DNA from: a virus | Lineage: Duplodnaviria; Heunggongvirae; Uroviricota; Caudoviricetes | Strand: one strand, 5' to 3' | Length of the DNA stretch: 33,170 nucleotides | Virus record (IMG/VR): IMGVR_UViG_2541047926_000010 | Shown: positions 2,723 to 26,205 of the stretch, piece after piece | Layout: the number at the start of each line of letters is the position of its first letter | How positions within the stretch are numbered: position 1 is the stretch's first letter | The notes under the pieces: generated by a model | Database searches by the model: none | Told to the model about the DNA's origin: nothing | The model's input: only the letters and a program-made list of their open reading frames with translations | Made by a program: the position numbers and the translations under genes

Positions 2723-3786
2723 AGCAGCTCTACCTCAACGTTTCCTAATTTGAGCCATTCGACTTTCGTGGCATCGATTATCGGTTGAATATTTGCCGAT
2801 GGTGTAACGATGTCATAGTCGGTAATACCCGGAATTAGAGAAATCAATGTCCCCGCCTGGCTGCGAATAAAAGCCACTCCAGGCTCTCGGCGCGAGTCAT
2901 CGTCCTCCAGCGTTCCGGCGACAGCCTGTTTGGCTGCTGCGAGGGTGATGCCCTCCAGTGATACCTTCACGAGGACGTCAAATGTACGGATGACAGGTAT
3001 GAGCACCAGCGTGTTTTTTGCTGTAACAGGCCGGACATCGTCAATGTGAGCCTGCACCCTGTCGATCACATCCTGAGATGGCAGCCCACCTGCAGACGTG
3101 ATCACAACATCAACGGTACCCGGCCCCCGCCGCAAAGGGTAAACATATGCGGCGGATACGCCTGATACCTCAAGCGCCCAGCGTTTGTAATCATATTTAT
3201 TGCCGCCTGCAGGAGGTCGGCGGATGATTTCAAGCAGACGAGCAAGCAGCTCTGCATCCGTTTCCTCATCTGTTCCGCCAGTCATCAGGCCTACTGTCAC
3301 TGTGCTGTCAAACCCATCAGGTGTTGTGGTCAGTGTGGCCGATGTGACGGAAGTGGTGTTACCAGTGGTTCCGGCCAGAGAAGACACTGCGTTTACCGAT
3401 GATTTTCCATCTGACCCGACAATAATATCTTCGGTTGTTGTCCACGAAACACTGTCGCGTTTGAACACAAGACCGGCAGCGGCCACCGCTCCTGGTTCGC
3501 CGGTAAACGTGGCAGGCCCGGAGGCGCTGTTGGCTGCTTTTTTGCTTAAACCACGTAAACGGGCGTGCAGATAGAGGAATTCCGAATCAGCAGTATCCGG
3601 AAAGATCTGACGGACTATCCATCCCTGATGCTGATAAAGCCCCTCGGCAACACTGGCTACACTCGATGCCCGGATGTACCAGTCGCTGTCCGGGCCCAGC
3701 GTATCATCTGACAACTGCAGGAGATTTTTGATATCCCGCAGAATGTCAGTGCGTATTTGCGCGGCATTTTTGGTAATGAATGGCAT
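2719..3786 (-). CDS. Baseplate J-like protein (Mu gp47-like)
   Basis: 355 aa; baseplate J-family features and synteny; overlaps both neighbouring genes. Confidence 0.8.
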   Translation of the reverse strand: MPFITKNAAQIRTDILRDIKNLLQLSDDTLGPDSDWYIRASSVASVAEGLYQHQGWIVRQIFPDTADSEFLYLHARLRGLSKKAANSASGPATFTGEPGAVAAAGLVFKRDSVSWTTTEDIIVGSDGKSSVNAVSSLAGTTGNTTSVTSATLTTTPDGFDSTVTVGLMTGGTDEETDAELLARLLEIIRRPPAGGNKYDYKRWALEVSGVSAAYVYPLRRGPGTVDVVITSAGGLPSQDVIDRVQAHIDDVRPVTAKNTLVLIPVIRTFDVLVKVSLEGITLAAAKQAVAGTLEDDDSRREPGVAFIRSQAGTLISLIPGITDYDIVTPSANIQPIIDATKVEWLKLGNVEVELL

Positions 3787-4136
3787 CAGCTGACCTTAAC
3801 CGGATATTTCCAGGTCTGCGGCGTTCCGCTCGCAGACGTGACGGTGATATGAAGCAGCATCCAGCCTTTTTGCCAGTGCTCTGCAGTAACGGAAATGGAC
3901 TGGGCGCGACCGTCGTCAATAATCGGTTGCAGGGCCTGCCGCGAATACTGCACCGCGAGTTGTTGAACGCGAGACACATCCTTTTCGCGGCGGAGTGTAT
4001 GCAAAAGAGAGCCCAGAGTTGGATCAGCCCACCATGAGCCAAGGGGCGTCATCAGCCGTAAGTAGACGGCATTCGCTAAAGAGTCTGAGCTGTCGCCGGT
4101 ATAATCGCCGGTCGTTGGATCAATCAACATTTCCAT
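3786..4136 (-). CDS. Mu gp46-like small baseplate protein
   Basis: 116 aa; synteny between spike and baseplate J genes. Confidence 0.65.
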   Translation of the reverse strand: MEMLIDPTTGDYTGDSSDSLANAVYLRLMTPLGSWWADPTLGSLLHTLRREKDVSRVQQLAVQYSRQALQPIIDDGRAQSISVTAEHWQKGWMLLHITVTSASGTPQTWKYPVKVS

Positions 4137-4189
4137 GCCGTAATACTACCGGCATGGAAATTTAAATTATCGGTGAAGGGGTTCAGTGG
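4137..4189 (-). promoter_or_regulatory. Candidate activator-dependent late promoter upstream of the gp46-like baseplate gene
   Basis: Minus-strand CCACTGAACCCCTTCACC (plus 4172-4189), identical to the copy upstream of the endolysin; 23-bp spacer to a -10-like TAGTAT. Confidence 0.45.
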
Positions 4190-13524: not shown

Positions 13525-14432
13525 TATGCGTCCTCCCCGGTGGAGCCATACGCCATCTGCCAGAAGCCGTAGCCACCATTTGCACGGGCTTCAGCACCGA
13601 AGATGAACTTCTTGCGCATAAAGACGTTGTCAGCGTTGTAGTCGGTCTGCTCGACAAAGACCGGTTTTTTACGCTCCTGATAAATCAGGGGCTTCACGGG
13701 TTTTGACGTGTCCAGAAGGAACCAGGCGGTATCTGACGTCAGCTCTGGGACAACCAGAACTTCAGCCGTCCCCTTGTATGGGTTTGGCGTATTGTCAGGG
13801 AAGCGGTCAGCCGTCATCAGATAGTTGGCATCGTCTTCAAGAGCCGGAGGCACAACCAGGATGGTCGGGCGAATTTTCAGGGACGCGCCTTCATCATCCT
13901 TCAGGCTGCGCATGGCCGTTCGTGCAGCCCCGTAACTTGCTTTTGCGGCGGCAAGCGAGGTAACGGCAAGCTTTTTCGTGCCTTTGTTAGAGACCGACTT
14001 GCCCCCCGAAAGGTGGTCGGTATCAAAGAAGGGCTGACCGTCGTAGCAAAGATTGGTGAAACCTTTGCTCAGGAGAGCGAAGACGATATCGGCAGGCAGT
14101 TCTGCAGCGGACTGGCCCGCACCTTTCGCCTGCAGGGCATAGCCCATGATTTGATCGTCTTCGATATCGTTACGTTCAACTTCTACCGTCGCTTCCCAGT
14201 CTTTGTTGCGGATGGTGTAGTTGAACGCGGCGAGCGCTTTAACCACCTTGTCGCCAATCCACTCACGCATTTTCGGGAACCGGCTTAGCCAGCTGTAGTC
14301 GTTTTCTTTCCCGGTCGACGGCACCACCATGGCAATCTTCTGCCAGTCGGACGGAGCCTGATCAAAGGCGTTCTGGAAGGTCGCTTTCAGATTAATGAAA
14401 ATCTGACGTACATTTTTTACGTTAATTAACAC
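13524..14432 (-). CDS. Major head (capsid) protein, Mu T-like
   Basis: 302 aa; size and position after protease/scaffold; Mu T-like sequence character. Confidence 0.85.
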   Translation of the reverse strand: MLINVKNVRQIFINLKATFQNAFDQAPSDWQKIAMVVPSTGKENDYSWLSRFPKMREWIGDKVVKALAAFNYTIRNKDWEATVEVERNDIEDDQIMGYALQAKGAGQSAAELPADIVFALLSKGFTNLCYDGQPFFDTDHLSGGKSVSNKGTKKLAVTSLAAAKASYGAARTAMRSLKDDEGASLKIRPTILVVPPALEDDANYLMTADRFPDNTPNPYKGTAEVLVVPELTSDTAWFLLDTSKPVKPLIYQERKKPVFVEQTDYNADNVFMRKKFIFGAEARANGGYGFWQMAYGSTGEDA

Positions 14433-14445
14433 GGTTCTCTCCTTA

Positions 14446-14838
14446 TTAAATCAGAACCCAGACGCCATCATTCTCAAGACCCAGCACCTTTCCGGCGATC
14501 GGACGGGCGTTGGTATCACTGGTTTTGGCCACGGTCTGGCTGTCCACCACGTAGCAATCCTTGCCAATCTGCGTCTGCGTGACCGCGTCAGCAGTGCTGT
14601 TGGCAAGGAACCAGGCTTTACCGCGACGAACCAGCACACTCGCATCACCGGCGGAACCGGCAGAGTTATCCACCCAGCCATCACAGATGCCGAGGGTGGT
14701 ATTGGCTGCCGTGGCGCTGCCTGGTACAGCAAAGCCCGCTGCGTTGGCCGCAATAATGTGGCCGCCAAAGAGTTCAGTGGCTGCCGCAACCGGGACGGCA
14801 AACAGCTGGCCGTCGCGATAAGGGGTATGACGATCCAT
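14446..14838 (-). CDS. Capsid-associated small protein (DUF2190-like, possible decoration protein)
   Basis: 130 aa, Ala/Gly-rich; between protease/scaffold and major head genes. Confidence 0.5.
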   Translation of the reverse strand: MDRHTPYRDGQLFAVPVAAATELFGGHIIAANAAGFAVPGSATAANTTLGICDGWVDNSAGSAGDASVLVRRGKAWFLANSTADAVTQTQIGKDCYVVDSQTVAKTSDTNARPIAGKVLGLENDGVWVLI

Positions 14839-14849
14839 TTCGCTCTCCT

Positions 14850-15965
14850 TTATTTGAGGTATTTCGCGACGCTTTCCGGGTCATTGCCCATCATTGAGCA
14901 GATGGCCGGGTCAATCGCATCATCTTCAGCACCCTGTGACGGGCGTGACGGAAGGCCTGCAGGCGGTTGCCCCTGAGTCTGACTGGTAGTCAGTGCGGCA
15001 ATCTTTGGCGCTTTTTCGATAAAGGCGGTAAGACTGGCCGGATCGGATTTCGCCAGTGATGCAGCCCATTCCTGTTGCGCCGGAAGCAGACGACCGTCGC
15101 TGAGGGCAACCGTAATCAACGCTTCAGCCTGCTGCATGGCGAGTGCGGCGGTATTACCCGCACCGGCACGCTCTGTCGCCTGCTGAACGGCTGAATGCAT
15201 GACCTCCACCGAAACCCACTTAGCCGGGTCAGGCGTGTCGAGTTTCGCCGTCAGGTCGGCGATGCTCTGCGCGTTCTGGTTCAGGATATCCAGCAGACTG
15301 ACCGACGCCGCTGCAGTCCCCTGTCCACCGGAAATCATGGTGATGATTTTTTGCAGCTCAGCCATGATCTCTTCTTTCGTTGAGGCGGTTGGCAGATTGA
15401 GCATCCAGCGCAGGTTGCTCAGTAGCTCGTTGAGAAATTCTTCATCCATTTCGGTCTGACCCTCTGTGGTTAAATGCGCGGCCATCAGGGAGGCGGCAGC
15501 AAGTAACACTTCCTCCATCCCGTCGACCGCTGGTGTATTGGTCAGCGCGGCGTTGAGCAACTCCAGCACCTGACCGGTTTTGTCGTAAGAAAATACGGGG
15601 GAAATAAAGCGATACTCTTTCGCCTCGACCATCGCAGCCGCAGCGGCTGTCCACTCGACATCGATGGCGAACAAACCTTCACCGTTCCGCCACTCCAGCT
15701 TTTTGAAGAATGCAGCTGCAGGCGCAGGCAGACCGTTTTTAGCGGCCCGAAGGGTCTGGTGTTCGTAGTCCAGGACGTAGGGGGTGTCGCGGGCATCAGC
15801 TGCGGCAATAAGGCGCTCTGCAATTTCCCGCGTCATCAGCCAGGCGGCGCATTCGGTCGGACGCCCGTCACGGGCGCGGAATTCACCAGCCGGGAAGAGC
15901 TGGATGACACCGGGAGTGGCGGTGTTAATTTCCTGGGTGAGTGAAGCGATGAGTGTCTTTTTCAT
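14850..15965 (-). CDS. Head protease / scaffold protein, Mu I-like
   Basis: 371 aa; Mu I-like N-terminal region; synteny. Confidence 0.8.
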   Translation of the reverse strand: MKKTLIASLTQEINTATPGVIQLFPAGEFRARDGRPTECAAWLMTREIAERLIAAADARDTPYVLDYEHQTLRAAKNGLPAPAAAFFKKLEWRNGEGLFAIDVEWTAAAAAMVEAKEYRFISPVFSYDKTGQVLELLNAALTNTPAVDGMEEVLLAAASLMAAHLTTEGQTEMDEEFLNELLSNLRWMLNLPTASTKEEIMAELQKIITMISGGQGTAAASVSLLDILNQNAQSIADLTAKLDTPDPAKWVSVEVMHSAVQQATERAGAGNTAALAMQQAEALITVALSDGRLLPAQQEWAASLAKSDPASLTAFIEKAPKIAALTTSQTQGQPPAGLPSRPSQGAEDDAIDPAICSMMGNDPESVAKYLK

Positions 15966-16020
15966 GGTGCCGACGATACGGCACCACTGGGGGGGAGGTT
16001 CAGATGAAGAGGTTCAGTGG
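15966..16020 (-). promoter_or_regulatory. Candidate activator-dependent late promoter upstream of the protease/scaffold gene
   Basis: Minus-strand CCACTGAACCTCTTCATC (plus 16003-16020; 16 of 18 match to the other two copies); 23-bp spacer to -10-like TATCGT; 7-bp-stem hairpin GGTGCCG/CGGCACC (15966-15985) next to the ATG. Confidence 0.45.
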
Positions 16021-16021
16021 A

Positions 16022-16231
16022 TTATCGCTGAGGATCGTTTTCTTTGGTTGTCGGCTTATCGGGTTTAGCAGACTGACGCTTCTGATGCCGACGGGCAAAG
16101 TATCGGTCAGTGAACCACTCAGCAACCTTTATAACCAGGCCCCCAAAGATGCCAATGAAAACCCACTGCTGCGGGGTGAAATAATCAAGGAAAGCTTTGA
16201 ATGTGTCCAGTTGCTCGCTCCCGTAATGCAT
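16022..16231 (-). CDS. Doubtful small ORF (69 aa, one predicted transmembrane helix) inside the G-I gap
   Basis: ATG 16231-16229 with weak ribosome-binding site; hydrophobic WVFIGIFGGLVIKVAEWF; an equally long antisense ORF exists, so coding status is uncertain. Confidence 0.25.
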   Translation of the reverse strand: MHYGSEQLDTFKAFLDYFTPQQWVFIGIFGGLVIKVAEWFTDRYFARRHQKRQSAKPDKPTTKENDPQR

Positions 16232-16347
16232 TTATGAGCCCAGACCTTTTTAAACCGCTTTTAAAAACGTCTGAATACCTTCTGGCCGAATCACTCTAGC
16301 ACAATCAGACTGAACGCGTCACAGCGCCTTACAGGACGAATTTGCCC

Positions 16348-16890
16348 TCAGTCTAAAATACGTTTCAGATATTGCTCAGCCGTACTCTCCATCTTCTCCA
16401 CGTCATCTTCGGTGAGATGCAGGAAAGGACGCGCGGGCATCTTAATTTTATACGCCCCGATAGTGTTCCACTGCTCAAAGTTGGAACGGGATTTTTTAAC
16501 GAACCGGTTACCCACTGAACCATCCTTGTTCTGGCGGTAGTAGGCTTTCTGGCTGCGGGCCGGAATGCTGATTTCCCCACCTTCCTGATGAATGCGGGCG
16601 TATTTCACATTGGTCCCGACCGTCGCATCATCATTCGTGCTGTACTGCGTGATACTCGCTGCCAGTCGACCGCTCTTCTGTAGAATTTTACCGCCCCGGC
16701 GCTGACGGGCATATGCCGGGCTCCAGCCCATCCACGCAGGCCGCCCCTGTTGCGCGAAGTTTTCTTCGACGGCATCCCCCATGGCAGCGGCCATCTCACG
16801 CATCAGGGGGGCGCGGTTTTCCAGCTTTTTAATGAGTTCACCGAGTGAGCGCTCAAAGTCAGCAATGTCATACCTGATGGCGTAGCTCAT
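16348..16890 (-). CDS. Virion morphogenesis protein, Mu G-like
   Basis: 180 aa; synteny between the Mu F-like and Mu I-like genes. Confidence 0.8.
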   Translation of the reverse strand: MSYAIRYDIADFERSLGELIKKLENRAPLMREMAAAMGDAVEENFAQQGRPAWMGWSPAYARQRRGGKILQKSGRLAASITQYSTNDDATVGTNVKYARIHQEGGEISIPARSQKAYYRQNKDGSVGNRFVKKSRSNFEQWNTIGAYKIKMPARPFLHLTEDDVEKMESTAEQYLKRILD

Positions 16891-18173
16891 GATTTCAGCT
16901 CCAGCAGCTGCGCCGCGCGTTCAGATAACACATCGCCAGGGGTGACTGTGGCACCGGCGTTTACAAGCGACAGACGCCAGCCATCGTCAGACTGCACACC
17001 ACGCACGGCGCGGGTGCCGTTCTGCCCGGAGAGGAGCCACACCAGAGCGTCATCATCAAGCCAGACACCAGCTGGCTGACGGAGCAGAACGGGAAGCTCT
17101 GACCACATCGGGCCCGGAGCCAGCCGGACATCCTCTTCGTGAACGCTTAATGTGATCGCACCGTTAACACCACGCTCTTCGAGGCGATTCAGCAGCTCAG
17201 GCTGGATACCGCCAACGCGTCTCAGGTCGCCACGGGTCTTCTGCCGCACGCTGACGGTGTCGACCCAGCGACGCACATCATCGCTGACGGCATCCAGCAC
17301 TGCAGGTTCAGAGAGGGTTTCATGGATGGCCTGAGAGGCAATCCGGGGCGTGGTAGTTGCAGATTTATCCATGAGGCGCTGTCCGAGAGAAGAGAGCCAG
17401 CCCTGACCCGGATTGTGCCCGAATCCGGCATCAGGCGTGTAAAGCTCGCCGTTGAAGCGTAACGCCTTAACGTCACGGGTTTCTTTTGGTCCCCATGCCT
17501 GCTGTACCGTGACAATGTCCTGCTCCCACGATTTGACCTCAATCCCCATGCGGTCTGCATCCGCCTGACTTCGGGCACGAATGCGGCAGCGGCAGTGGTA
17601 TCCGTCAGGCGGGTACATAAACTGCCATACAGGATCGTCATAGCGGGCTGTGAAACCATTAAGTCTGGCGTGGAGTGGCCGGGTGTGCATGTCCATGACG
17701 GCCACGCGTTCCCATATGGGGCGAAACTCCGCGTTGGCCATCTGCTCCGCATAGCGACCGGCACCATAGGCCGCCTGCATATTGGTTTCAAAGATAGTGC
17801 GCAGACGGCGTGGCGTGAGTTGTTTACCCTCCAGAACGCCATCCTCATCGGCGACCAGCCTGGCACGGTCGGCAAGCCAGCCCTTACGGATCAACGTTGG
17901 GGTTATCTGCCGTTCAAAGTCCCGGAGCGTGCCGCCATCAGCAATATGCTCGCGAAGCGATTTATGAATATCCTCAAGCACATCCTGTTTAAGGACGCCC
18001 GCCACGGTGAAACTGGTGGCATGGGCGCGGGCCTCAATATCGTGCCAGTTAAAGCCGGTGGCATAGCCCTTCGATTCGAAGTAGGCAATCGCTTCTGCGG
18101 GCTTTAACCCGATGGCGTACCCCAGATCAACATCAGCTTTCGGCATTGAGTCGCCCCCAGACCTCGCTGACAA
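16887..18173 (-). CDS. Head morphogenesis / minor head protein, Mu F-like
   Basis: 428 aa; directly downstream of portal. Confidence 0.8.
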   Translation of the reverse strand: MSARSGGDSMPKADVDLGYAIGLKPAEAIAYFESKGYATGFNWHDIEARAHATSFTVAGVLKQDVLEDIHKSLREHIADGGTLRDFERQITPTLIRKGWLADRARLVADEDGVLEGKQLTPRRLRTIFETNMQAAYGAGRYAEQMANAEFRPIWERVAVMDMHTRPLHARLNGFTARYDDPVWQFMYPPDGYHCRCRIRARSQADADRMGIEVKSWEQDIVTVQQAWGPKETRDVKALRFNGELYTPDAGFGHNPGQGWLSSLGQRLMDKSATTTPRIASQAIHETLSEPAVLDAVSDDVRRWVDTVSVRQKTRGDLRRVGGIQPELLNRLEERGVNGAITLSVHEEDVRLAPGPMWSELPVLLRQPAGVWLDDDALVWLLSGQNGTRAVRGVQSDDGWRLSLVNAGATVTPGDVLSERAAQLLELKS

Positions 18174-19707
18174 ACAGCGCCTGCTTTATCAGCTGCTGCA
18201 GCTGCGTATCATCCAGCTGAGGGTAACTCGCAGCAATGATATCCAGAGCCTCATCAGGGCTTTGCCCCTTGCTCAGGGCCGAGACCAGCGGCGCAATCAG
18301 CTTATCCATGGCTTTCGCGATGCTCTCCCCTGGCGACGTGGCGCTGTCCAGCGCATCCTGTGCAGGGTCAACAACCTCGCCCGTAGTGCTCAGTGCCGCA
18401 AAATGGCGGAATACCGGCGATGTGCTCAGCCCCACCGGAGAGGGAGCAGCAGGCGGTGTCAGCACAGCTTCGTTCTCTTTTGGTACCGGAATCCCGACCT
18501 TTTTGTGTATCCATGACGTCGGGATAGTGTCCATCCCGGCGCGTACCAGCGCGGAAACACCATTGGCGAAGGTTTCAATGCTCTCCAGCTCACGGGTATC
18601 AAATACCAGACGCGGCTGACGGCGCGGGCTGACGTTATAACCATTAATGGCCAGTAACATACGAATGAAGCCACGATAAAACCCTTCCAGCTGGCGGGCA
18701 TCAGCGGTCAGCAGATCGTGGCGGACTTCGTTATGCACATTACCAAGGGCATTTGTTGAGGACTTGCCGTCCGCCTGTGACGTCAGCGTGCCGCCGAGAA
18801 TGACCTTTGATTCGGTACGTTCGCACCAGTTAATCATCGCCATGAAAGGATCGGACTGCCCCTCGGCGGCATCCTTAAATTCGATTTTGGTGTTATCAGG
18901 GATGATCCCCGAGGCGTTATGACCGATGCTGACCAGCGCCTCCATGAGTTTATCCTGCTCATCCTGACTGGCCCCGGACATATACGACCCGATGCGCGGT
19001 GGCAGCCCGTAGATTTCCAGGAACTCAGCGAGATCGCGCACGCTGTAGTTTTTAAACAGATAAGGCCAGACCAGCACGCGGTATAAGCCGGACTGCGCGA
19101 TATAGCCTGACTTGGCGTTGTGCGTATGCACCAGCCAGCCAAACGGCCAGAGTTCTTCTCCCCCCAGCGTGCCGGTGTTAAGACGCACCTCATCCCCGGC
19201 TTCCGGCGTGGTACAGAACCAGCGATGCGGACGCAGTTTGATTTTGACAGGCAGCCACAGATTGCCGTCAAGCTCCCACTTTTCAATCTCCTGAGCGGAA
19301 AAGCCATGCCCGATAGCTTCAGCCGCATTCAGGGTAATATCTTCCATCTCCTGAAGGTCAGCGAACCAGCTGGCCACCATCGCGGCGATCTGCTTTTCTT
19401 CCGCCGTCGCGTTCGGCGGTGGCTCGATGCTCCAGTCCAGAGTGAGCAGCGCATTCTTACGCTTGGCCATTTCAGAAAAGATATGCCCGTCCCGCTCAAC
19501 CATATCTTCGAAAAGGTCAGCCTGAGCCGCTAGGTCGCCGCGTTCAGCCGCTTCCAGCAGGCGAGGAAGCCGGGCAATAGTCATTCCCCGTGAGGGGTGA
19601 GTTGGCCAGTCACGCTGCAGCTCGAACGTGCGGGAGGTCTGGGGGGCTTTAAGCACCTCTTTATTAAGCGGGCGACCATACTGGTCAAGAATCTGAACCA
19701 TTATCAA
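18133..19707 (-). CDS. Portal protein (Mu gp29-like, DUF935-like)
   Basis: 524 aa; directly downstream of terminase large subunit. Confidence 0.85.
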   Translation of the reverse strand: MIMVQILDQYGRPLNKEVLKAPQTSRTFELQRDWPTHPSRGMTIARLPRLLEAAERGDLAAQADLFEDMVERDGHIFSEMAKRKNALLTLDWSIEPPPNATAEEKQIAAMVASWFADLQEMEDITLNAAEAIGHGFSAQEIEKWELDGNLWLPVKIKLRPHRWFCTTPEAGDEVRLNTGTLGGEELWPFGWLVHTHNAKSGYIAQSGLYRVLVWPYLFKNYSVRDLAEFLEIYGLPPRIGSYMSGASQDEQDKLMEALVSIGHNASGIIPDNTKIEFKDAAEGQSDPFMAMINWCERTESKVILGGTLTSQADGKSSTNALGNVHNEVRHDLLTADARQLEGFYRGFIRMLLAINGYNVSPRRQPRLVFDTRELESIETFANGVSALVRAGMDTIPTSWIHKKVGIPVPKENEAVLTPPAAPSPVGLSTSPVFRHFAALSTTGEVVDPAQDALDSATSPGESIAKAMDKLIAPLVSALSKGQSPDEALDIIAASYPQLDDTQLQQLIKQALFVSEVWGRLNAES

Positions 19708-21353
19708 AATCCTCCTGAAGGACCGAACCTGTCTCCGCTATGGCCACGACGGGGAACAGCTTTAAATTCAAAATTACCAGCGCCGGAAACGGCCAGCATC
19801 CAGAGCATATGCAGGGCATCTGGCCCGTCATCATGGTCAGCTTTGGGGAAATGCCGGAGCTGGTCGATAAGTGTTGTCTGGGAAGGGTGCAGTCGTATCA
19901 GGCCGTTGGCCATATGTGGCTGCAGTGACTCAATGCGCAGAAGCTTATCAACCGAAGGCGTGACGGCCCTGGCAGGAACGGGGATACCCATCGCAGCGGA
20001 GCGCTTCACCAGTTCGGTGCGCAGGAACTCCTGGAACTGGACGGACTCGACCGCCCAGACCAGACAGTTATATTCCCGCTGCAGCTCGATAACGTCAGAG
20101 ATAATTTTGTCCGGCACACGCTTACGGATACGCGCTTCGACCACATCCAGAATGCCGGTGAAGCGGTTGAAGCCACCGACCAGTAATGCGGAAGGGTCGC
20201 GGCTGTTACCGTGTTTACCCAGGCTGGGGTCACATGCGCCATAGAAGCGCCACTCGTTAAGGCGGTTGACCCAGAAGTTAATGCAGCCGGTAAATGGCGC
20301 ATCTTCGCCGCTGACGGGATCGTTCTGATATTCCGCATCAAAGGTACTGTGGCCATCACGGGCGCGGATGAGCATCAATGCATAAAGCGGACGCGCAGCC
20401 CATGAAACAACAGCTCCTTCATCCATCTCAGCCTGATGCTCACGGTAATATGCCTGCGCCAGAACCTGACCATCTTCATCGTTGTTGCGCAGGATCTCTT
20501 CCCATTTATCCCACAGCGACATATTGTGCGGCCAGCTGATGAGCGCTTTGAACCGGGCCCGCGTCCATAGCGGATTTTTAAGGGTGCGGGAAAGCACGGA
20601 ATCGTAGTGCAGGATTGTCCCGATATACACCACATCGAACTTGGCCCCCGCACCACCGAGCGGCAGGACGGTTTTTTTGAGCCAGTTATCGAGCTTGTCA
20701 CGCTGCTCAGGGTTACGCACCAGCTCGTCGTTCTCGATATCATCGAGCACAGCCAGGTCAGGACGATACGGGCCATGGCGCAGGCCACGCAACTTTTTAC
20801 CACTACCGGCGACCTGCACCTTAATGTCGTTGCGGGTGAGAATTGTCCCGGCCTGCCAGACGCGGCCACCGCCCGTCGCTTCAGGAAAGTCCATCAGCAG
20901 ACGGGGGTTAAACTGCAGTTCCGCCTTTATCGCCTCCAGCATCGGATAGGCCTGGTCGATGGAGTCCATAATGATGACCGGGTAATGCTTGAGCGCCAGC
21001 ACAATGCACCAGATGACAAAAAGCTGACTCACGATGGTGGATTTGGCTTCACCACGGGGAGCCGCTATTGCATCGTTCTGGCTCCCCGTGGCCTGGATGA
21101 TTTCAGGCAGGCGCTTGTAGAGATAGTTATGCAGTTCGCTGCGGGCAGCATGGCGGACATAGTGCGGAAAATAATGCTGCACAAAGTACTCAAACCCCGT
21201 TACAGGGTCAGCGACAAGGCCACGACGCGCAGCGACAGCAGCAGCAGAGGGGTCAAAGCCCACATCTTCCGCTTCAATGGTGCGACGAAGACTGGCGGAA
21301 AGTTCCGCAAGTTCGGCAAGAAAATCTTTGCTGGATAACTTAGTTCTGGCCAT
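19704..21353 (-). CDS. Terminase large subunit (Mu gp28-like)
   Basis: 549 aa; size and synteny. Confidence 0.85.
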   Translation of the reverse strand: MARTKLSSKDFLAELAELSASLRRTIEAEDVGFDPSAAAVAARRGLVADPVTGFEYFVQHYFPHYVRHAARSELHNYLYKRLPEIIQATGSQNDAIAAPRGEAKSTIVSQLFVIWCIVLALKHYPVIIMDSIDQAYPMLEAIKAELQFNPRLLMDFPEATGGGRVWQAGTILTRNDIKVQVAGSGKKLRGLRHGPYRPDLAVLDDIENDELVRNPEQRDKLDNWLKKTVLPLGGAGAKFDVVYIGTILHYDSVLSRTLKNPLWTRARFKALISWPHNMSLWDKWEEILRNNDEDGQVLAQAYYREHQAEMDEGAVVSWAARPLYALMLIRARDGHSTFDAEYQNDPVSGEDAPFTGCINFWVNRLNEWRFYGACDPSLGKHGNSRDPSALLVGGFNRFTGILDVVEARIRKRVPDKIISDVIELQREYNCLVWAVESVQFQEFLRTELVKRSAAMGIPVPARAVTPSVDKLLRIESLQPHMANGLIRLHPSQTTLIDQLRHFPKADHDDGPDALHMLWMLAVSGAGNFEFKAVPRRGHSGDRFGPSGGF

Positions 21354-21377
21354 GATTAATTTGCCCTTAACAGCCTG

Positions 21378-21584
21378 TTAATGGTGATTACGGAGGGCTT
21401 TATTAACCTCGCTGATAAAGCGGTTCATCGACTCGATGCCGGTTTTATCTCGTTCAACGTCGAGGCTGTAGCAGCCTGTCGACGTCGCGACGGTTACGTT
21501 TCTACCGCCCGCGAACCGGATCCCCAGCACGTCACTGGCCATCACAAAAATTTCACTGTTAACCCGGATTAACTGGTCAGCCAT
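21378..21584 (-). CDS. Hypothetical small protein between the terminase subunit genes
   Basis: About 68 aa from ATG 21584 (track ORF 21378..21689 trimmed to avoid overlap with terminase small subunit); weak ribosome-binding site. Confidence 0.3.
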   Translation of the reverse strand: MADQLIRVNSEIFVMASDVLGIRFAGGRNVTVATSTGCYSLDVERDKTGIESMNRFISEVNKALRNHH

Positions 21585-22077
21585 AGTGTTGTTCCATTTC
21601 CTTGCCGAATGGTTCAAGGATCTCAACGAATGCCGCCAGGTGCTTCGGATAGTGCTCTGCAACAAACGCGCTGAGCTTCTGGATAACATCCAACGCTACC
21701 GCCAGCTGACTCACCTCCGGCAGTATTTTCTTGTTGGCTGCGACGGCTTTGTTAAATGCATCGGCAAGGCTTGCCAGAAGCTCGACGCGCTCTCCCGGAG
21801 GGAGCTGAGACTCGGTTGTGAGCAGTTCCAGCGTGGTCTGATACTGGGTCATTAACCCGGTGAGAATGGCGCGGCCAATCTCTTCAAGCCCATTCCCGGC
21901 CATAAGGTGAGCGGCGCGTAACTTATCCCAGTCATCGCCTGCGTCCTGGGCTTCCTTCTTCCAGCGGCGAGCTGTCGCAAATGCCACGCCAGCCTGAGCG
22001 GAGGCGATTTCAAGCGACATCTGGCCGAAGATATAAGATCGTCGCAGTTTTTCCCGTGTTTCCTGCGGATGCGCCAT
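21577..22077 (-). CDS. Terminase small subunit (Mu gp27-like, DUF3486-like)
   Basis: 166 aa; synteny directly upstream of the terminase large subunit gene. Confidence 0.7.
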   Translation of the reverse strand: MAHPQETREKLRRSYIFGQMSLEIASAQAGVAFATARRWKKEAQDAGDDWDKLRAAHLMAGNGLEEIGRAILTGLMTQYQTTLELLTTESQLPPGERVELLASLADAFNKAVAANKKILPEVSQLAVALDVIQKLSAFVAEHYPKHLAAFVEILEPFGKEMEQHYG

Positions 22078-22078
22078 A

Positions 22079-22363
22079 TCACAACTCCAGTTTTGCGCGA
22101 ATGAGCAGAATCGCTACCGTGATGACACCGCCTGCAATTCCACCCGTAATCGCACCGGCAGACGCACCACGGCGAGCCGCATCGTCGCTGATGGTCGTGA
22201 GGCGAACATCAATCCGGCTCAGTTTGTCATTAATCCCGCCCAGAATGTCCGGGCTGACGGGGGCCTGCAGGCGGTCGAGCTGAGCGGAAATCCGGCTCAG
22301 CGTTTCCTGCTCGCTCTGGCTGATTGTCGCGCGGCGGGTTCTGCGCTTATGTCTGGCTTTCAT
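22079..22363 (-). CDS. Mu gp26-like small protein with C-terminal membrane anchor
   Basis: 94 aa; basic N-terminus; hydrophobic GAITGGIAGGVITVAILLI near C-terminus. Confidence 0.5.
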   Translation of the reverse strand: MKARHKRRTRRATISQSEQETLSRISAQLDRLQAPVSPDILGGINDKLSRIDVRLTTISDDAARRGASAGAITGGIAGGVITVAILLIRAKLEL

Positions 22364-22614
22364 TTGTCCTGTTTCCTGTCCAGTTTGTTATCAATGCGCT
22401 CGATAGCCGCTCGCAGCTCCCTCATCGCATCCATCATTGCGGTGTAGTTACTTTTCGCATCCTCACGGCGCTGGTATTCATCCCGGATGCGATCAACCGC
22501 CTTTTCCAGGTCGGTGATGTCTTTTTGCAGACGACGTATCCAGATGGTGCCGAAGGTTGCAGCCAGCGCCAGCGCAATCTGAAAGGCCATATCAAGAGTC
22601 ATAATGTTTTTCAC
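22360..22614 (-). CDS. Mu gp25-like small membrane protein (possible lysis regulator)
   Basis: 84 aa; N-terminal hydrophobic helix then charged coiled-coil-like region; adjacent to spanin genes. Confidence 0.45.
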   Translation of the reverse strand: MKNIMTLDMAFQIALALAATFGTIWIRRLQKDITDLEKAVDRIRDEYQRREDAKSNYTAMMDAMRELRAAIERIDNKLDRKQDK

Positions 22615-23243
22615 TTCCTGTAATACTCATTTATTGCCTGCAGCCTGCCCTCAAGGAGCTGGCACCATGCGCCGTATTCCGCTGAAAACGACACTATTCC
22701 AGTGGGGGAGAGTCCGCCACCGGTGCCTGTGGTCTGGCCGGTATGACCAGGAGCGCCGCTGGCGGTGGCTGGCAGATGCTGACCAGCGGGGAGGCTTTCG
22801 GCTCCTGGGTAGCCGAAGGCTTCCCGGAAGAGCTGCAGGCCCCCAGGGCCAATGCCGGTATAACCAGGACCATCTTTATCAAGTGCATCTTTAAGCCTCT
22901 TTTTAAGATCGCGAACAGTCTCGTCATGTGCCTTTTGCTTTTCAGCCAGCTCGCGGGTCAGCGCATCCGCTTTCTGCTGCCAGGCGTTCTGCTTATCAAG
23001 TGCAGCCTTCAGGTCAGCTGCATACTGATTCGCAGCACTGAGCCGCTCCTGATCCCACTGCCGTTCTTTTTCACTGAAACCATCAGTCAGGCTTTGCTTC
23101 TCCTTGCTGAAGGCCAGCGCCTGAGCGTCCAGCTTGTTGCCTGTGATGAAGGTGCCGAACCATATCCCGCTGCCTGTCAGAACCACGACGACGAGCAGCG
23201 GTTTCCAGCTAACCCTCAGGATTTTCTGGGCTGCTTCCCACAT
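22611..23243 (-). CDS. Inner-membrane spanin (Rz-like)
   Basis: ATG 23243-23241 (MWEAAQKILRV); N-terminal transmembrane helix LLVVVVLTGSGIWFGTFI, coiled-coil centre, Gly/Pro-rich C-terminus; track ORF extends further upstream to 23333. Confidence 0.7.
   Translation of the reverse strand: MWEAAQKILRVSWKPLLVVVVLTGSGIWFGTFITGNKLDAQALAFSKEKQSLTDGFSEKERQWDQERLSAANQYAADLKAALDKQNAWQQKADALTRELAEKQKAHDETVRDLKKRLKDALDKDGPGYTGIGPGGLQLFREAFGYPGAESLPAGQHLPATASGAPGHTGQTTGTGGGLSPTGIVSFSAEYGAWCQLLEGRLQAINEYYRK
22694..22888 (-). CDS. Outer-membrane spanin lipoprotein (Rz1-like), embedded in another frame of the i-spanin gene
   Basis: From ATG 22888 with GAGG 8 nt upstream; signal MHLIKMVLVIPALALGA then lipobox Cys; short Pro-rich mature part with a second Cys. 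Confidence 0.6.
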   Translation of the reverse strand: MHLIKMVLVIPALALGACSSSGKPSATQEPKASPLVSICQPPPAALLVIPARPQAPVADSPPLE

Positions 23244-23472
23244 CGCGCACCTCTCTGGCTCGTTTGATGGACATATGTTTTGATGCCTGGCTCTGTGCCA
23301 CCCACGCGCCCAGATAGGTGAGATACAGTTCACCGGGTGTTTCGGGACGGGTAACGGTGAGCCAGACCAGCACGAAGGAACTGACCAGGAAGGCCAGAAA
23401 AACGATGGTGTCTGACGTAGAGAGACGACCGGTGGCCGGGTTCGTCACCAGATCGCGCAGAGATATTTTCAT
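23209..23472 (-). CDS. Holin-like small membrane protein
   Basis: 87 aa; hydrophobic IVFLAFLVSSFVLVWLTV; ATG overlaps endolysin stop (ATGA); between endolysin and spanins. Confidence 0.4.
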   Translation of the reverse strand: MKISLRDLVTNPATGRLSTSDTIVFLAFLVSSFVLVWLTVTRPETPGELYLTYLGAWVAQSQASKHMSIKRAREVRDVGSSPENPEG

Positions 23473-24113
23473 AGCGCCGCCTTAGCGACATTCAGCCGCG
23501 CCACGCGGTCAGCCTGACCTTCAGCCGGAGGGTTGATACGCCGGGTTACGGCCAGAAAATTGCCTTTGTCAGCCAGCTCGTTGCAGCCATTTGCCTTCCA
23601 GTACCAGGCAGCGCTGCGGGCTGCGTTGAGATACTCCAGTAACAAATCGGGATTCGCGATGAGATCGAGGCCCAGCGCCTTACCGCAAAGGCGGTAATTA
23701 TCGCGCAGGGTAATCTGAATCAGGCCACGTCCGCGAAAGCGCCAGCCATCGCCTGATGCTTCATTACCGTTACCCCCCTGATTTGCGTAAACATAATTGG
23801 CCATTTTTTCAGGATTACGGGTATAGCGGCGGGCAAATTCCACCTCTCTCGGCTCGATAATACGATTCTTATTGAGATCGAAGTCGCTGCGGAAAATACG
23901 CGCCACGCGCTCAGCATCTGAGTAATAGAGATTTTCACTGAGCCGACTGAAACCCGCGCTCTCATGGCCGGTTTGAGCAATAAAGGCGGCAAGTCGGGCG
24001 GGTGTATTAATTTCGAATTCAGCGGTGGCTTTACTGAATGGTTCAAACCAGCGTTGCGCCATTACTGGCGAAAGGCCTGCGGCTCGCTGAAATTGTGGGA
24101 GTGTTAAAAGCAT
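23469..24113 (-). CDS. Endolysin, glycoside hydrolase family 19 (chitinase-like)
   Basis: 214 aa; GH19-like motifs FRGRGLIQITLRDNY and AAWYW; no N-terminal signal-anchor-release segment. Confidence 0.8.
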   Translation of the reverse strand: MLLTLPQFQRAAGLSPVMAQRWFEPFSKATAEFEINTPARLAAFIAQTGHESAGFSRLSENLYYSDAERVARIFRSDFDLNKNRIIEPREVEFARRYTRNPEKMANYVYANQGGNGNEASGDGWRFRGRGLIQITLRDNYRLCGKALGLDLIANPDLLLEYLNAARSAAWYWKANGCNELADKGNFLAVTRRINPPAEGQADRVARLNVAKAAL

Positions 24114-24190
24114 AACGCCATCCGGTTAAAAAGGAATGGCGTCAGTATTTCATCGGGTTAGGTGAATAATCAGGTGAAGGGGTTCAGTGG
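24114..24190 (-). promoter_or_regulatory. Candidate activator-dependent late promoter upstream of the endolysin gene
   Basis: Minus-strand CCACTGAACCCCTTCACC (plus 24173-24190); 23-bp spacer to -10-like AATACT; imperfect hairpin 24115-24142 directly before the ATG. Confidence 0.5.
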
Positions 24191-24191
24191 T

Positions 24192-24671
24192 TTATTCAGT
24201 CACATCTATTATTATGGGTTCATTCGATTCTGGTTCAACATCTTTTTTCACCATGTATTCCCCCTTTGCTTTAGCTTCATCAATCAATGGGAGATATCTA
24301 TAAACAATTTTCCATACTTCTTCATCTTGTTTAAAGTCAAGATTGCGGCATGCTTGCCTCTCATTCATAGGGTCTGTTGAGTTCATTTTATCAGGATTGG
24401 AAACCAATAAAATTTTCCTCCATGCGCAAGATTTCGTTTCGTTTTTCTTTATGAAATCAAACCCGCCCGTTTTAGAACTGCCTGTCTGATATGCAAAAGC
24501 TAAATTCCTTTGTGCCTGATAGCCGTCTTTAATCGCCGCGTTAATGAAATCATTCTCAGTCTTAATCGATCCCTGTGCTTGCTCAGGAATATTTAGTTTT
24601 GTTAATTGGCCGTTGTTAGCCATGCTGTTAAAGCTAATTAAAATACAACCGGCAGCAATCAAACATTTCAT
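24192..24671 (-). CDS. Secreted protein of unknown function (AT-rich moron)
   Basis: 159 aa; Sec-type signal MKCLIAAGCILISFNSMA; AGGAG 5 nt upstream of the ATG; by eye clearly more AT-rich than the flanking phage genes. Confidence 0.65.
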   Translation of the reverse strand: MKCLIAAGCILISFNSMANNGQLTKLNIPEQAQGSIKTENDFINAAIKDGYQAQRNLAFAYQTGSSKTGGFDFIKKNETKSCAWRKILLVSNPDKMNSTDPMNERQACRNLDFKQDEEVWKIVYRYLPLIDEAKAKGEYMVKKDVEPESNEPIIIDVTE

Positions 24672-24679
24672 AACTACTC

Positions 24680-25114
24680 CTAAAAAAGTGAGTTTTGTGT
24701 TGAGGTTCCATTACTCTTTTCCGCAGCAAGAAGCTGCCAACCGAAGCGATCACTAAAACCATACTTAGGGCAAAGAAAGGTCATGGCCATAAGAGAGGAT
24801 GAACCTTGTTCACGCACTTCGGCGAACTCGGCGAGAAAGCGGCGGTTGCGTAATTCACGAAGGGCACGATCACAGCGCGGTAAATAGAGAACTTCTCCGC
24901 CGAAATTCTTGATGAGTAATTGGGTTTTATCATCGCCGATAGTATTGCGCAGGAGGGCTGCGCGGCTGGCCCCCATAGCGCGGAGGCCTTTACCTATCGG
25001 GAACGTGGTGCCACCAAAAGCAGAAAGAAGCTGCTCGGTCGCCGGGAAGCCTATCAGGTCAGCTATTTGAATCACTGCTGATGGCAGCAGCTCCGTTACC
25101 TGTTCCAGATTCAT
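24680..25114 (-). CDS. Mor/C-family transcriptional activator
   Basis: ATG 25114 (MNLEQVTELLP; track ORF begins upstream at 25150); GGEVLYLPR segment resembles the Mor/C conserved core; directly downstream of gemA. Confidence 0.75.
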   Translation of the reverse strand: MNLEQVTELLPSAVIQIADLIGFPATEQLLSAFGGTTFPIGKGLRAMGASRAALLRNTIGDDKTQLLIKNFGGEVLYLPRCDRALRELRNRRFLAEFAEVREQGSSSLMAMTFLCPKYGFSDRFGWQLLAAEKSNGTSTQNSLF

Positions 25115-25535
25115 TATTACGCTCCCGCTTTTTTCGCCGACTCGCATCAATGCTGAGAGCCTGCATGAGTTTGGTTAACTGTTCAGTCGTCAACCACTCG
25201 ATGTATTTGACGTGAAACATATGATCGCACATTTTCTCGGCATAATTCCACGGACGTTTTGCATCTGCAAGTAATGCGTTAATTTTAGAAAGAATTGACT
25301 CGCGCGTATTGGCAACCTTTGGGCGTCGACCGTGTTTTACTGAGTAGCGAGGAAAACCCTTGTCATGCATATATTCCATGACAGCCTGCAGCTCGTCGAG
25401 GGTGCATTTAGTGGATGATGTTTTACCGTTGCATAAGCGAGACAGAACACTACGGTAGGTTACCTCATCCCACCCCAGATATGCCTGACCGGCTTTAATT
25501 GCCCCTATAAGGCCTCGTTTTGCTGGCGTGGACAT
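25059..25535 (-). CDS. gemA: GemA-like protein (DUF1018-like)
   Basis: ATG 25535 with AGGAG 7 nt upstream; N-terminal MSTPAKRGLIGAIKAGQAYLGWDEVTYRSVL typical of the GemA family; followed by a Mor/C gene as in Mu. Confidence 0.75.
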   Translation of the reverse strand: MSTPAKRGLIGAIKAGQAYLGWDEVTYRSVLSRLCNGKTSSTKCTLDELQAVMEYMHDKGFPRYSVKHGRRPKVANTRESILSKINALLADAKRPWNYAEKMCDHMFHVKYIEWLTTEQLTKLMQALSIDASRRKKRERNNESGTGNGAAAISSDSNS

Positions 25536-25563
25536 AATATTTCTCCTGTTGGTTGTCATTATC

Positions 25564-25587
25564 GCAGGCACTTTATGAAGTGCCTGC
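25564..25587 (-). promoter_or_regulatory. Perfect 10-bp inverted repeat with 4-bp centre upstream of gemA
   Basis: Plus GCAGGCACTT TATG AAGTGCCTGC; lies between the last accessory early gene and the gemA ribosome-binding site; no U-tract follows. Confidence 0.4.
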
Positions 25588-25602
25588 TGTAATGACTTAC
25601 TT

Positions 25603-25812
25603 TCAAGGTTTCATTTTGCTGACTGATATACCACCGATTTTCCCTTCGACCCTGACAACCAGACGACCATTGCGCATATGCCAGGCTGCCGGGCGGGTTA
25701 TTACAGTTTCCCGCTCCGATACACCAGGTGTCAGGTAATAATGGAACTGTGAGTCAACGGGGAAGCGCTGGTTAAAGGTCTTTGCTGTCAGATTTCTCAG
25801 GAGATGTCCCAT
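25603..25812 (-). CDS. Hypothetical early protein (69 aa)
   Basis: ATG 25812 with GGAGG 6 nt upstream; overlaps upstream gene end. Confidence 0.5.
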   Translation of the reverse strand: MGHLLRNLTAKTFNQRFPVDSQFHYYLTPGVSERETVITRPAAWHMRNGRLVVRVEGKIGGISVSKMKP

Positions 25813-25990
25813 AGTTTTCCTCCAGATTCGCATCGGTGGCAATAATGCTTAATGGCCATAAGAGAAAGGCAAACCAGTAATTCTGGCGGGATAAATTAGC
25901 TAATCCCACTAATCGGGCCAGAATGCATATCCAGCACCAGCCAAGTGTTAAATACATCGCCAGCAATATGATAATGAAAGCTATATCCAT
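25772..25990 (-). CDS. Small membrane protein with two predicted transmembrane helices (72 aa)
   Basis: ATG 25990 overlaps upstream stop (TGATG); hydrophobic IAFIIILLAMYLTLGWCWICILARLV and WFAFLLWPLSIIA. Confidence 0.5.
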   Translation of the reverse strand: MDIAFIIILLAMYLTLGWCWICILARLVGLANLSRQNYWFAFLLWPLSIIATDANLEENYGTSPEKSDSKDL

Positions 25991-26205
25991 CACTTTATCC
26001 CCCGAAGTTTCTTGAAAGATTCAATCGCCTTCTTCATATCAGCCTGAGTCCCCTTATTGCGTACCTTACGGTTACTGGCGTCGTAATAGTTGAACCGCAG
26101 CTTAAGTGGCACCGCCAGCAACTCGACAACCTGGCTGTTATCGCGGAAGAACCAGATTCGGCGGTTACCGTTATCCTGGAACTGGCAGCCCGTTACGCTA
26201 TGCAT
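25990..26205 (-). CDS. Small basic early protein (71 aa), unknown function
   Basis: ATG 26205 with GGAGGTGA 5 nt upstream; overlaps upstream stop by 8 nt; Lys/Arg-rich. Confidence 0.55.
   Translation of the reverse strand: MHSVTGCQFQDNGNRRIWFFRDNSQVVELLAVPLKLRFNYYDASNRKVRNKGTQADMKKAIESFKKLRGIK

Follow-up and report, generated by a model that had tools for sequence, protein, structure and literature searches.

The late promoters of the transposable phage Mu possess a -10 hexamer of the sigma-70 type without a usable -35 element, and are found ahead of lys, ahead of I and among the tail/baseplate genes. The activator C binds at these promoters to a 16-bp dyad with a reported center at -43.5 (PMC2582627), and it stands at the end of a cascade in which Mor acts on the promoter Pm and Pm drives C. 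Here we compare with this system a stretch of 33,170 nucleotides from a tailed phage (IMGVR_UViG_2541047926_000010; hereafter the window, by which the whole stretch is meant), which is a Mu-like prophage with its genes on the minus strand and with genes for the transposase A and B proteins. The element in question is an 18-bp box that is present upstream of the genes for the endolysin (lys), the protease/scaffold protein (I) and a baseplate protein (gp46). An earlier note on this DNA had proposed that these boxes mark activator-dependent late promoters, and their position, the signature of their -10 hexamers, the geometry and the co-occurrence with a Mor/C-family gene all argue for this proposal. 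Judging from the sequence, the three boxes quite probably mark activator-dependent late promoters of the Mu type.

Other described systems bear on the 5' ends of the transcripts. The cI gene of phage lambda, when transcribed from PRM, yields a leaderless mRNA. The fold-back inhibition known from IS10 and IS50 acts on read-through transcripts only. The same principle operates at sigG of Bacillus subtilis, where a hairpin blocks the translation of read-through transcripts only (PMC5942855).

The box, its hexamer and its distribution

At 24173..24190 on the minus strand the box reads CCACTGAACCCCTTCACC and would serve the lys promoter as its activator site; it is repeated exactly at 4172..4189 (minus) in front of gp46, and the variant CCACTGAACCTCTTCATC, with two mismatches, is present at 16003..16020 (minus) in front of I. 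The identity of the first two copies and the 16 of 18 matches of the third, both claimed previously, were recovered in a mismatch search of the whole window, which returned exactly three sites at up to three mismatches, all of them on the minus strand, whereas 0.03 were expected by chance and none of 100 dinucleotide shuffles reached three. The box contains the dyad TGAA-N4-TTCA, and the inner pattern CTGAANNNNTTCA (CTGAA-N4-TTCA) is likewise confined to the three boxes in the window (0.34 expected). Both mismatches of the I box fall outside the TGAA and TTCA half-sites, and the same variant was found in relatives. All three boxes are intergenic and directly precede a gene on the same strand, namely the GH19 endolysin gene lys (23469..24113, minus; Pfam Glyco_hydro_19), the Mu-like protease/scaffold gene I (14850..15965, minus; Pfam Mu-like_Pro, E 3.4e-93) and the GP46 baseplate protein gene (3786..4136, minus; Pfam GP46, E 7.1e-20), each being the first gene of its promoter.

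Each box is followed on the minus strand by a -10-like hexamer: AATACT at 24144..24149 (lys) and TAGTAT at 4143..4148 (gp46), both 23 nt after the box, and TATCGT at 15973..15978 (I), 24 nt after the box in the window and 23 nt in relatives. The three hexamers had been named in the earlier note together with a spacer of exactly 23 bp; the hexamers are all present, and the spacer holds at lys and gp46 but not at I. The lack of a good -35, also claimed there, was upheld at lys and I by a promoter scan of positions 14000-26000, which reported no sigma-70 -35/-10 pair at either site, and only a weak cTGA after the box stands in place of a -35 element. Other placements of the -10 or -35 within or just past the box were rejected, as they yielded no consistent hexamer. 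Positions 2 (A) and 6 (T) are the most important bases of a -10 element, and exactly these two never vary (A43 and T47 of A3, an alignment with 22 gp46 relatives), the remaining hexamer positions and the flanks being variable. All 18 unique lys-class relatives have [AG]ATACT at +24..+29, and distant relatives carry better hexamers (TATACT, TATGCT, TACACT, TATTCT) at the same 23-nt spacing. The distance from the box to the start codon is 35-37 nt at gp46 and I versus approximately 60 nt at lys, and the only layout common to the three classes consists of the box, 23 nt and NAnnnT.

With the hexamer set as -12..-7, the box extends over -53..-36 and TGAA-N4-TTCA is centered at -43.5 (-44.5 at the window's I copy); this value depends on the predicted transcription start, the dyad center being located 31.5 bp before the first hexamer base. 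The earlier placement of the box at about -36 to -53, the position of Mu C, agrees with this predicted geometry, in which the dyad center coincides with that of the Mu C site (PMC2582627). For lys, the standard geometry between the -10 element and +1 predicts a start at the A at position 24137 (minus), which is the seventh nucleotide after the hexamer, is preceded by C and would leave a leader of 24 nt. Column 12 of the lys-class alignment A4 is an invariant C that is C-G paired in 26 of 26 sequences, and A predominates in the column after it.

The likeness to Mu extends to the sigma-70 -10 hexamer that lacks a usable -35, to the imperfect dyad of the Mor/C family at -43.5 (PMC2582627), and to the location of the promoters ahead of lys and I and among the tail/baseplate genes. 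Mu Plys, PI and PP share a conserved CATAA whose end precedes TAGACT, CAAACT and TATCCT, respectively, by 24 nt, such that a conserved block ends 23-24 nt before the hexamer both in Mu and here, and Mu Plys, as judged by oligonucleotide design, has the same start layout as the window's lys promoter. However, the third promoter is located upstream of gp46 here but inside N, upstream of P, in Mu, and the Mu sites are of the CATAAyCCC type in contrast to CCACTGAACCCCTTCACC. As there is no common consensus with the Mu C or Mor box, the binding specificity appears to differ.

To assess the distribution of the box, viral contigs were scanned for exact CCACTGAACCYCTTCAYC, which gave 90 loci. About five of these are isolated matches in unrelated sequence, at chance level; the others belong to Mu-like contigs of approximately 33-38 kb and lie upstream of lys, I or gp46 homologues, often in two or three copies per contig. 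The unique box-bearing relatives number 18 in the lys class, 28 in the gp46 class and 31 in the I class. The same box occurs in contigs of very different G+C content, some of them G+C-rich and with a Mor homologue only 31% identical to that of the window. At the other extreme, E. coli FDAARGOS_1303 shows 95% identity to the window over this region. A further 80 loci were chosen via the Mor homologue alone (97-35% identity), independently of the DNA motif, and candidates were defined by a core with up to three mismatches, a retained TGAA and an A2/T6 hexamer 22-24 nt downstream. At least one box with its hexamer was present on the gene strand in 75 of these loci, with 166 candidates on the gene strand versus 8 on the opposite strand. 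For cores with up to two mismatches, A2/T6 stood at exactly +24..+29 in 119 of 164 gene-strand matches versus none of 28 on the opposite strand, and in most of the remaining gene-strand matches the hexamer was shifted by one base. Conservation is far stronger in the left half of the box, including its CCA extension, than in the right half. Rather than being scattered within the coding regions of related phages, an outcome that the earlier note had weighed, the 18-mer is nearly confined to the regions upstream of lys, I and gp46.

A host repeat element was considered as the source of the box and rejected. A degenerate 18-mer gave 42 matches in 298 Gb of representative genomes (one per species), against about 35 expected by our own estimate; multi-copy matches were restricted to prophage-bearing Trabulsiella, Serratia and 'Martelella alba', and single matches were found in Yersinia and Kosakonia. 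Since the box is at chance level outside prophages in these genomes, it appears to be a phage signal and not a host repeat. A literature search for the 12-mer and the 15-mer of the box found no paper containing either, and the matches to a 10-mer were unrelated tRNA-fragment and primer sequences. The sequence comparisons support the view that a widespread group of Mu-like prophages uses the late-promoter principle of Mu with a different, highly conserved box.

Two further box-like sequences were noted. One is located about 60 nt before the large terminase gene and has intact half-sites in relatives (TCGATGAACCGCTTCATC, 24 nt, AATCAT; e.g. L095 at 13702). Its location inside a coding region and its degenerate form in the window (TGAACCGCTTTA, 21416-21427) kept it from being counted as a fourth site; it could have arisen by chance or serve as an internal promoter of low strength. 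The other is found in the lys class, 41 bp downstream of the box, where the hexamer together with the 5' arm of the hairpin described below resembles the box core CTGAACCCCTTCA: it reads AATACTGAACACCTTCC in distant relatives (two mismatches to the core; L149 7831-7848 and similar) and AATACTGACGCCATTCC in the window (24134-24149). This stretch could be a second, weaker activator site or the relic of a duplication.

The Mor/C-family activator

The Mor/C-family gene at 24680..25114 (minus), assigned in the earlier note, was recovered with three profiles. With 31.9 bits (E 1.4e-7), the open reading frame (ORF) 24680-25150 exceeds the curated Pfam Mor cut-off of 24.9, the product of 24680-25114 matches phrog_836, 'late transcriptional activator' (E 3.6e-38), and the family profile A5, built without Mu proteins, retrieves from the solved structures both Mu C (9l0x, E 6.8e-6) and Mor (1rr7, E 0.0038). 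A5 took the place of alignment A2 in this PDB search, since Mu Mor and C are themselves members of A2 and the result with A2 was rejected as circular. The window protein aligns with the Mor/C family (PF08765) in its Y[IL]PRC linker and in the helix-turn-helix at its C-terminus. At the start of the recognition helix, [ST]DR..W is invariant or nearly so among the box-associated homologues, compared with TFN in Mu Mor and SQP in Mu C. A phmmer search with the 24680-25114 protein found no second Mor/C copy in the window, which thus has one activator where Mu has Mor plus C. The Mor/C-family gene accompanies the box down to 31% protein identity, and it is likely that the homologue encoded at 24680-25114 is the protein that binds it.

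Additional support for this assignment comes from the distant relatives L149-L166, which possess two Mor/C paralogues, both matching phrog_836, together with two box subtypes (L149 6803-8340; L157 7302-8661). Directly upstream of the second paralogue there is a box with CCA before CTGAAC (CCACTGAACCCCTTCAAC), followed by AATACT and a terminator-like hairpin, whereas boxes with CTG or GTG before CTGAAC ([CG]TGCTGAACCCC.TCAA.) are located upstream of the lysis genes and I; this pattern is kept in 11 of 12 two-paralogue loci. Comparative evidence of this kind suggests a three-step cascade like that of Mu, from Mor via Pm and C to the late promoters, with specificity possibly determined by the three bases 5' of CTGAA. 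Mu Pm is thus matched in protein family and activation geometry, and in the two-paralogue relatives also in its role, as the CCA-type box with AATACT and the terminator-like hairpin drives the second paralogue in the way that Pm drives C. The Pm site is unrelated in sequence, however, and the resembling promoter of the window, that of lys, directly drives the lysis/packaging operon. The window phage has one activator and CCA-type boxes only, and its lys promoter shares with the 'middle' promoter of the relatives the hexamer, the hairpin and an upstream secreted-protein neighbor (159-175 aa), which suggests a shortened early-to-late cascade in the window phage.

In the Klebsiella phage ST405-OXA48phi1.1 (L091), an unannotated Mor-family gene was observed at 8340-8774, where the annotation leaves the interval from the GemA gene to the following coding sequence empty. 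This phage has three promoters with the variant box CCACTGAAGCCCnTCAAy, and its recognition helix reads SDRTGWH in place of SDRFGWQ in the window.

Hairpins and predicted leaderless starts

All three promoters are embedded in inverted repeats on the minus strand. The gp46 hairpin (4129..4161) has 12 pairs and a 3' arm that contains the ATG at 4134-4136, and the I hairpin (GUGGUGCCG-UAUCGU-CGGCACCAU, 15964..15987) has a 3' arm with the A and U of the start codon; in both, the 5' arm is formed by the spacer and the loop by the hexamer. In the lys hairpin (24113..24144), the 5' arm (24134-24144) extends from the last hexamer base to about +4, and the 3' arm (24113-24123) contains GGAUGG and the A of the lys AUG. 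Since the 5' arm is encoded upstream of the predicted start or spans it, folding of these hairpins would be restricted to read-through RNA. Such RNA from the window folds at -20.3 kcal/mol for gp46 (z -5.2), -16.4 for I (z -3.6) and -15.0 for lys (z -3.6), whereas RNA from the predicted lys start at 24137 folds at -2.3 kcal/mol. The family means for read-through versus promoter-initiated RNA are -19.6 versus -0.1 kcal/mol (gp46), -12.3 versus -0.2 (I) and -20.4 versus -4.7 (lys).

The pairing is maintained across relatives. For gp46, 11 pairs were 86.8% paired with six compensatory changes, compared with 26-54% in slid controls, and for lys 10 pairs were 85.8% paired with seven compensatory changes. 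The lys value was counted on the stated structure, because RNAalifold returned only five pairs owing to register shifts in the alignment, and a statistic for pairing of the lys-class start codon was discarded, as its search pattern took the ATG inside GGATGG. At least five pairs bridge the hexamer in all 31 unique I-class relatives. The G.U cells, 15 for gp46 and 23 for lys, would be A.C mismatches on the opposite strand, and the structure therefore appears to be selected on the sense strand. The tails that follow the window hairpins are UAUGCUUUU (lys), AUGUUGAUU (gp46) and GAAAAAG (I), and in several relatives, distant and G+C-rich (L009, L055, L086, L123, L148, L149-L166), a U-run follows the same hairpin and makes it terminator-shaped. 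In Mu itself, a stem likewise spans the transcription start at Plys and PI, with the 5' arm over the -10 and the start. The Plys stem of Mu (L092; CUGCCAUCA/UGAUGGCGG, approximately 10444-10490) covers the lys AUGAUGG with its 3' arm and is not significant against shuffles (z -0.86), and the PI stem (approximately 18022-18052) has a fold z of -2.9.

From these folds it may be proposed, with slightly less than even confidence, that the hairpins filter read-through RNA. A documented parallel is sigG of B. subtilis, where the 5' arm is similarly missing from transcripts of the gene's own promoter and concealment of the initiation region is limited to RNA arriving from upstream (PMC5942855). Compared with sigG, IS10 and IS50, the hairpin here is joined with an activator-dependent phage promoter, has the hexamer in its loop and a predicted leaderless start at two sites, and is terminator-shaped in relatives of the window phage.

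For gp46 the transcription start is predicted at 4136 (minus), the A of the ATG (4134-4136), 7 nt after the hexamer, and for I at 15965 or 15966 (minus), 7-8 nt after the hexamer, with the ATG at 15963-15965. Between hexamer and ATG, 29 of 30 unique gp46 sequences have a gap of 6 nt and all 31 I sequences one of 6-7 nt, and C always directly precedes the A of the ATG at both genes. No Shine-Dalgarno sequence is present before I or gp46 in the window; the pairing energies with the anti-Shine-Dalgarno sequence (-3.3 kcal/mol for gp46 and -5.1 for I) are among the weaker values in the window, in a ranking that includes many unverified ORF starts. The 5' ends appear unstructured, as RNA beginning at the ATG folds at -3.9 (gp46) and -0.4 (I) kcal/mol, and an in-frame TAG inside the gp46 hexamer excludes an earlier gp46 start. 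Leaderless mRNAs that begin at the A of the ATG are moderately likely for both I and gp46. In Mu, by contrast, I and lys have leaders with Shine-Dalgarno sequences. The cI mRNA from PRM of lambda is alike in its 5' AUG, and the transcripts predicted here share the lack of a Shine-Dalgarno sequence and the unstructured 5' end; they differ in that the first genes of long late structural operons are concerned and not a repressor, that the start is only predicted, and that one subgroup uses GTG. As far as the searchable literature shows, predicted leaderless starts and hairpins around the transcription start have not been described for such promoters.

Other explanations, gene context and meaning

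Several observations weigh against the picture of hairpin-embedded, activator-dependent late promoters with leaderless starts. The I spacer in the window has 24 nt owing to one extra C in its C-run, compared with relatives that have 23. A GTG start works poorly on leaderless mRNA in Escherichia coli, and gp46 starts with GTG in a subgroup (L023, L034, L052 and the Klebsiella phage L091). The I-class hairpin has no common register, as RNAalifold found no consensus among the 31 sequences (mean z -2.0), and a terminator scan of 14000-26000 did not report the hairpins at 15964-15987 and 24113-24144 as intrinsic terminators. Finally, Q113 and Q116 of Mu C contact bases (preprint 10.1101/2025.05.02.651988), and the residues aligned with them vary (F/H/R/I and Q/G/N/D/K, respectively) among proteins with the same box, such that the assignment of the protein to the box rests mainly on co-occurrence. 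With respect to the I spacer, the run of seven C at 15991-15997 is one base longer than in near-identical promoters of relatives (e.g. L021, L027), and the extra C could be a real homopolymer variation or a sequencing error.

Among the alternatives, the hairpins could be the primary elements, acting as terminators or as processing/stability elements that close the upstream operons, the box being incidental, for instance a junction sequence retained by recombination of mosaic modules. The T-run after the hairpin in distant and G+C-rich relatives and the location of the boxes at module borders (lysis/packaging, head, baseplate) would fit, but the silence of the terminator scan on the two window hairpins within its range of 14000-26000 would not, and the fixed 23-nt distance to the A2/T6 hexamer, the strand bias and the link to Mor would be left unexplained. 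This explanation is unlikely and, moreover, is compatible with late promoters at these sites rather than an alternative to them. Slightly less likely still is an RNA operator composed of box and hairpin, in which a protein would bind the loop with its conserved A and U, or the 18-nt mRNA stretch, and control translation of the first gene, on the model of Mu Com on mom mRNA or of a coat-protein operator that contains the start codon. The covariation and sense-strand specificity of the hairpins speak for it, as do the start codon in the stem and the conserved A and T in the loop at I and gp46. However, the lys hexamer is not in the loop but 5' of the stem, overlapping its first base; the spacing between box and hexamer is constant while the distance from the box to the start codon varies; conservation falls precisely on the two bases that matter most in a -10 element; and no Com-like gene turned up, although no search was aimed at one.

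It is very improbable that the box is a site of the host CRP/FNR family (core TGA-N6-TCA) at a class II position and not that of a phage protein. Class II sites of this family read TGTGA-N6-TCACA or TTGAT-N4-ATCAA and are centered at -41.5. TGAACCCCTTCA does fit TGA-N6-TCA and overlaps the -35 region, but its center is at -43.5 or -44.5, the CTGAA/TTCA half-sites match neither TGTGA nor TTGAT and the flanks differ. The asymmetric conservation in favor of the left half with its CCA extension, the persistence of the box across very different G+C contents, always with a Mor homologue, the correspondence of two Mor paralogues to two box subtypes, and the chance-level frequency outside prophages in representative genomes argue in the same direction. 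The least probable of the four proposals, namely that the inverted repeat acts in DNA, with a non-template strand extruded by supercoiling or Mu-type replication offering a single-stranded -10 to sigma-70, draws on the hexamer being exactly the loop at I and gp46, on wobble pairs that suit the non-template strand as well as RNA and on the tie of Mu late transcription to replication (PMC12867686), but leaves the lys hexamer outside the loop and would bury the transcription start in the stem. We know of no precedent for such an extruded -10 being presented to sigma-70 at double-stranded promoters.

The genes around the promoters are those of a Mu-like prophage. A GemA gene is located at 25059-25571 (minus), and the activator gene is followed by a gene for a secreted-looking protein of 159 aa (24192-24671) and then by the endolysin gene; packaging and head genes, including I, and tail and baseplate genes, including GP46, make up further content of the window. 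The 159-aa protein, which is encoded between the activator gene and the lys promoter, has a signal-peptide-like N-terminus and belongs to phrog_5882 of unknown function, and a secreted-looking protein of 110-175 aa is found in the equivalent position in distant relatives (L149 7262-7789, L157 7771-8103). Directly upstream of the I box, a holin-like ORF of 69 aa was observed at 16022-16231 (Pfam Phage_holin_2_1; phrog_9876, holin); its stop codon adjoins the box, and the endolysin/spanin cluster is 7 kb away. The gap 16232-16347, between a G-like gene (16348-16890) and this ORF, contains gacgtttttaaaagcggtttaaaaagg, which is similar to the region beside the central strong gyrase site of Mu and is also present in the Klebsiella phage L091 at approximately 17990-18020. 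An Rfam scan of the whole window matched no family.

For the late promoters, the following mechanism may be envisaged. A dimer or higher oligomer of the single Mor/C protein (24680-25114) would bind the box at about -43.5 and recruit the host sigma-70 RNA polymerase to the weak -10 hexamer 23 (or 24) bp downstream, and transcription would start at the A of the ATG for I and gp46 and 24 nt upstream of the ATG for lys. Read-through RNA from the upstream operon would fold the hairpin and hide the start codon, at lys also GGAUGG, and would not be translated; in some relatives the upstream RNA may be terminated at the hairpin. RNA initiated at the promoter would lack the 5' arm, have an open 5' end and be translated, in leaderless form at I and gp46. 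As a likely consequence, synthesis of the lysis, head and baseplate proteins would be confined to the time when the activator fires the late promoters. We tentatively suggest, though somewhat less confidently than for the filtering of read-through RNA by itself, that late promoters in this group, and in outline also in Mu, may be built inside hairpins, such that RNA from upstream is silenced, activator-started RNA begins within the hairpin (leaderless at I and gp46) and late synthesis is gated twice, with the two-paralogue relatives separating middle from late by CCA versus CTG or GTG.

The analysis provides a precise map of box, hexamer and predicted starts for a widespread group of Mu-like prophages, found in Enterobacterales and beyond; how the late genes of this group are controlled appears to be undescribed in the searchable literature. 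It also points to a natural system for studying the specificity of Mor/C proteins, given a conserved box in this group, another box in Mu and two subtypes accompanying two paralogues. A transposable phage is always embedded in foreign transcription units, and the proposed arrangement, if true, would be a compact way for such a phage to silence its lysis and structural genes under upstream transcription. It would also make the I and gp46 transcripts rare cases of leaderless mRNAs of structural operons in enterobacterial phages.

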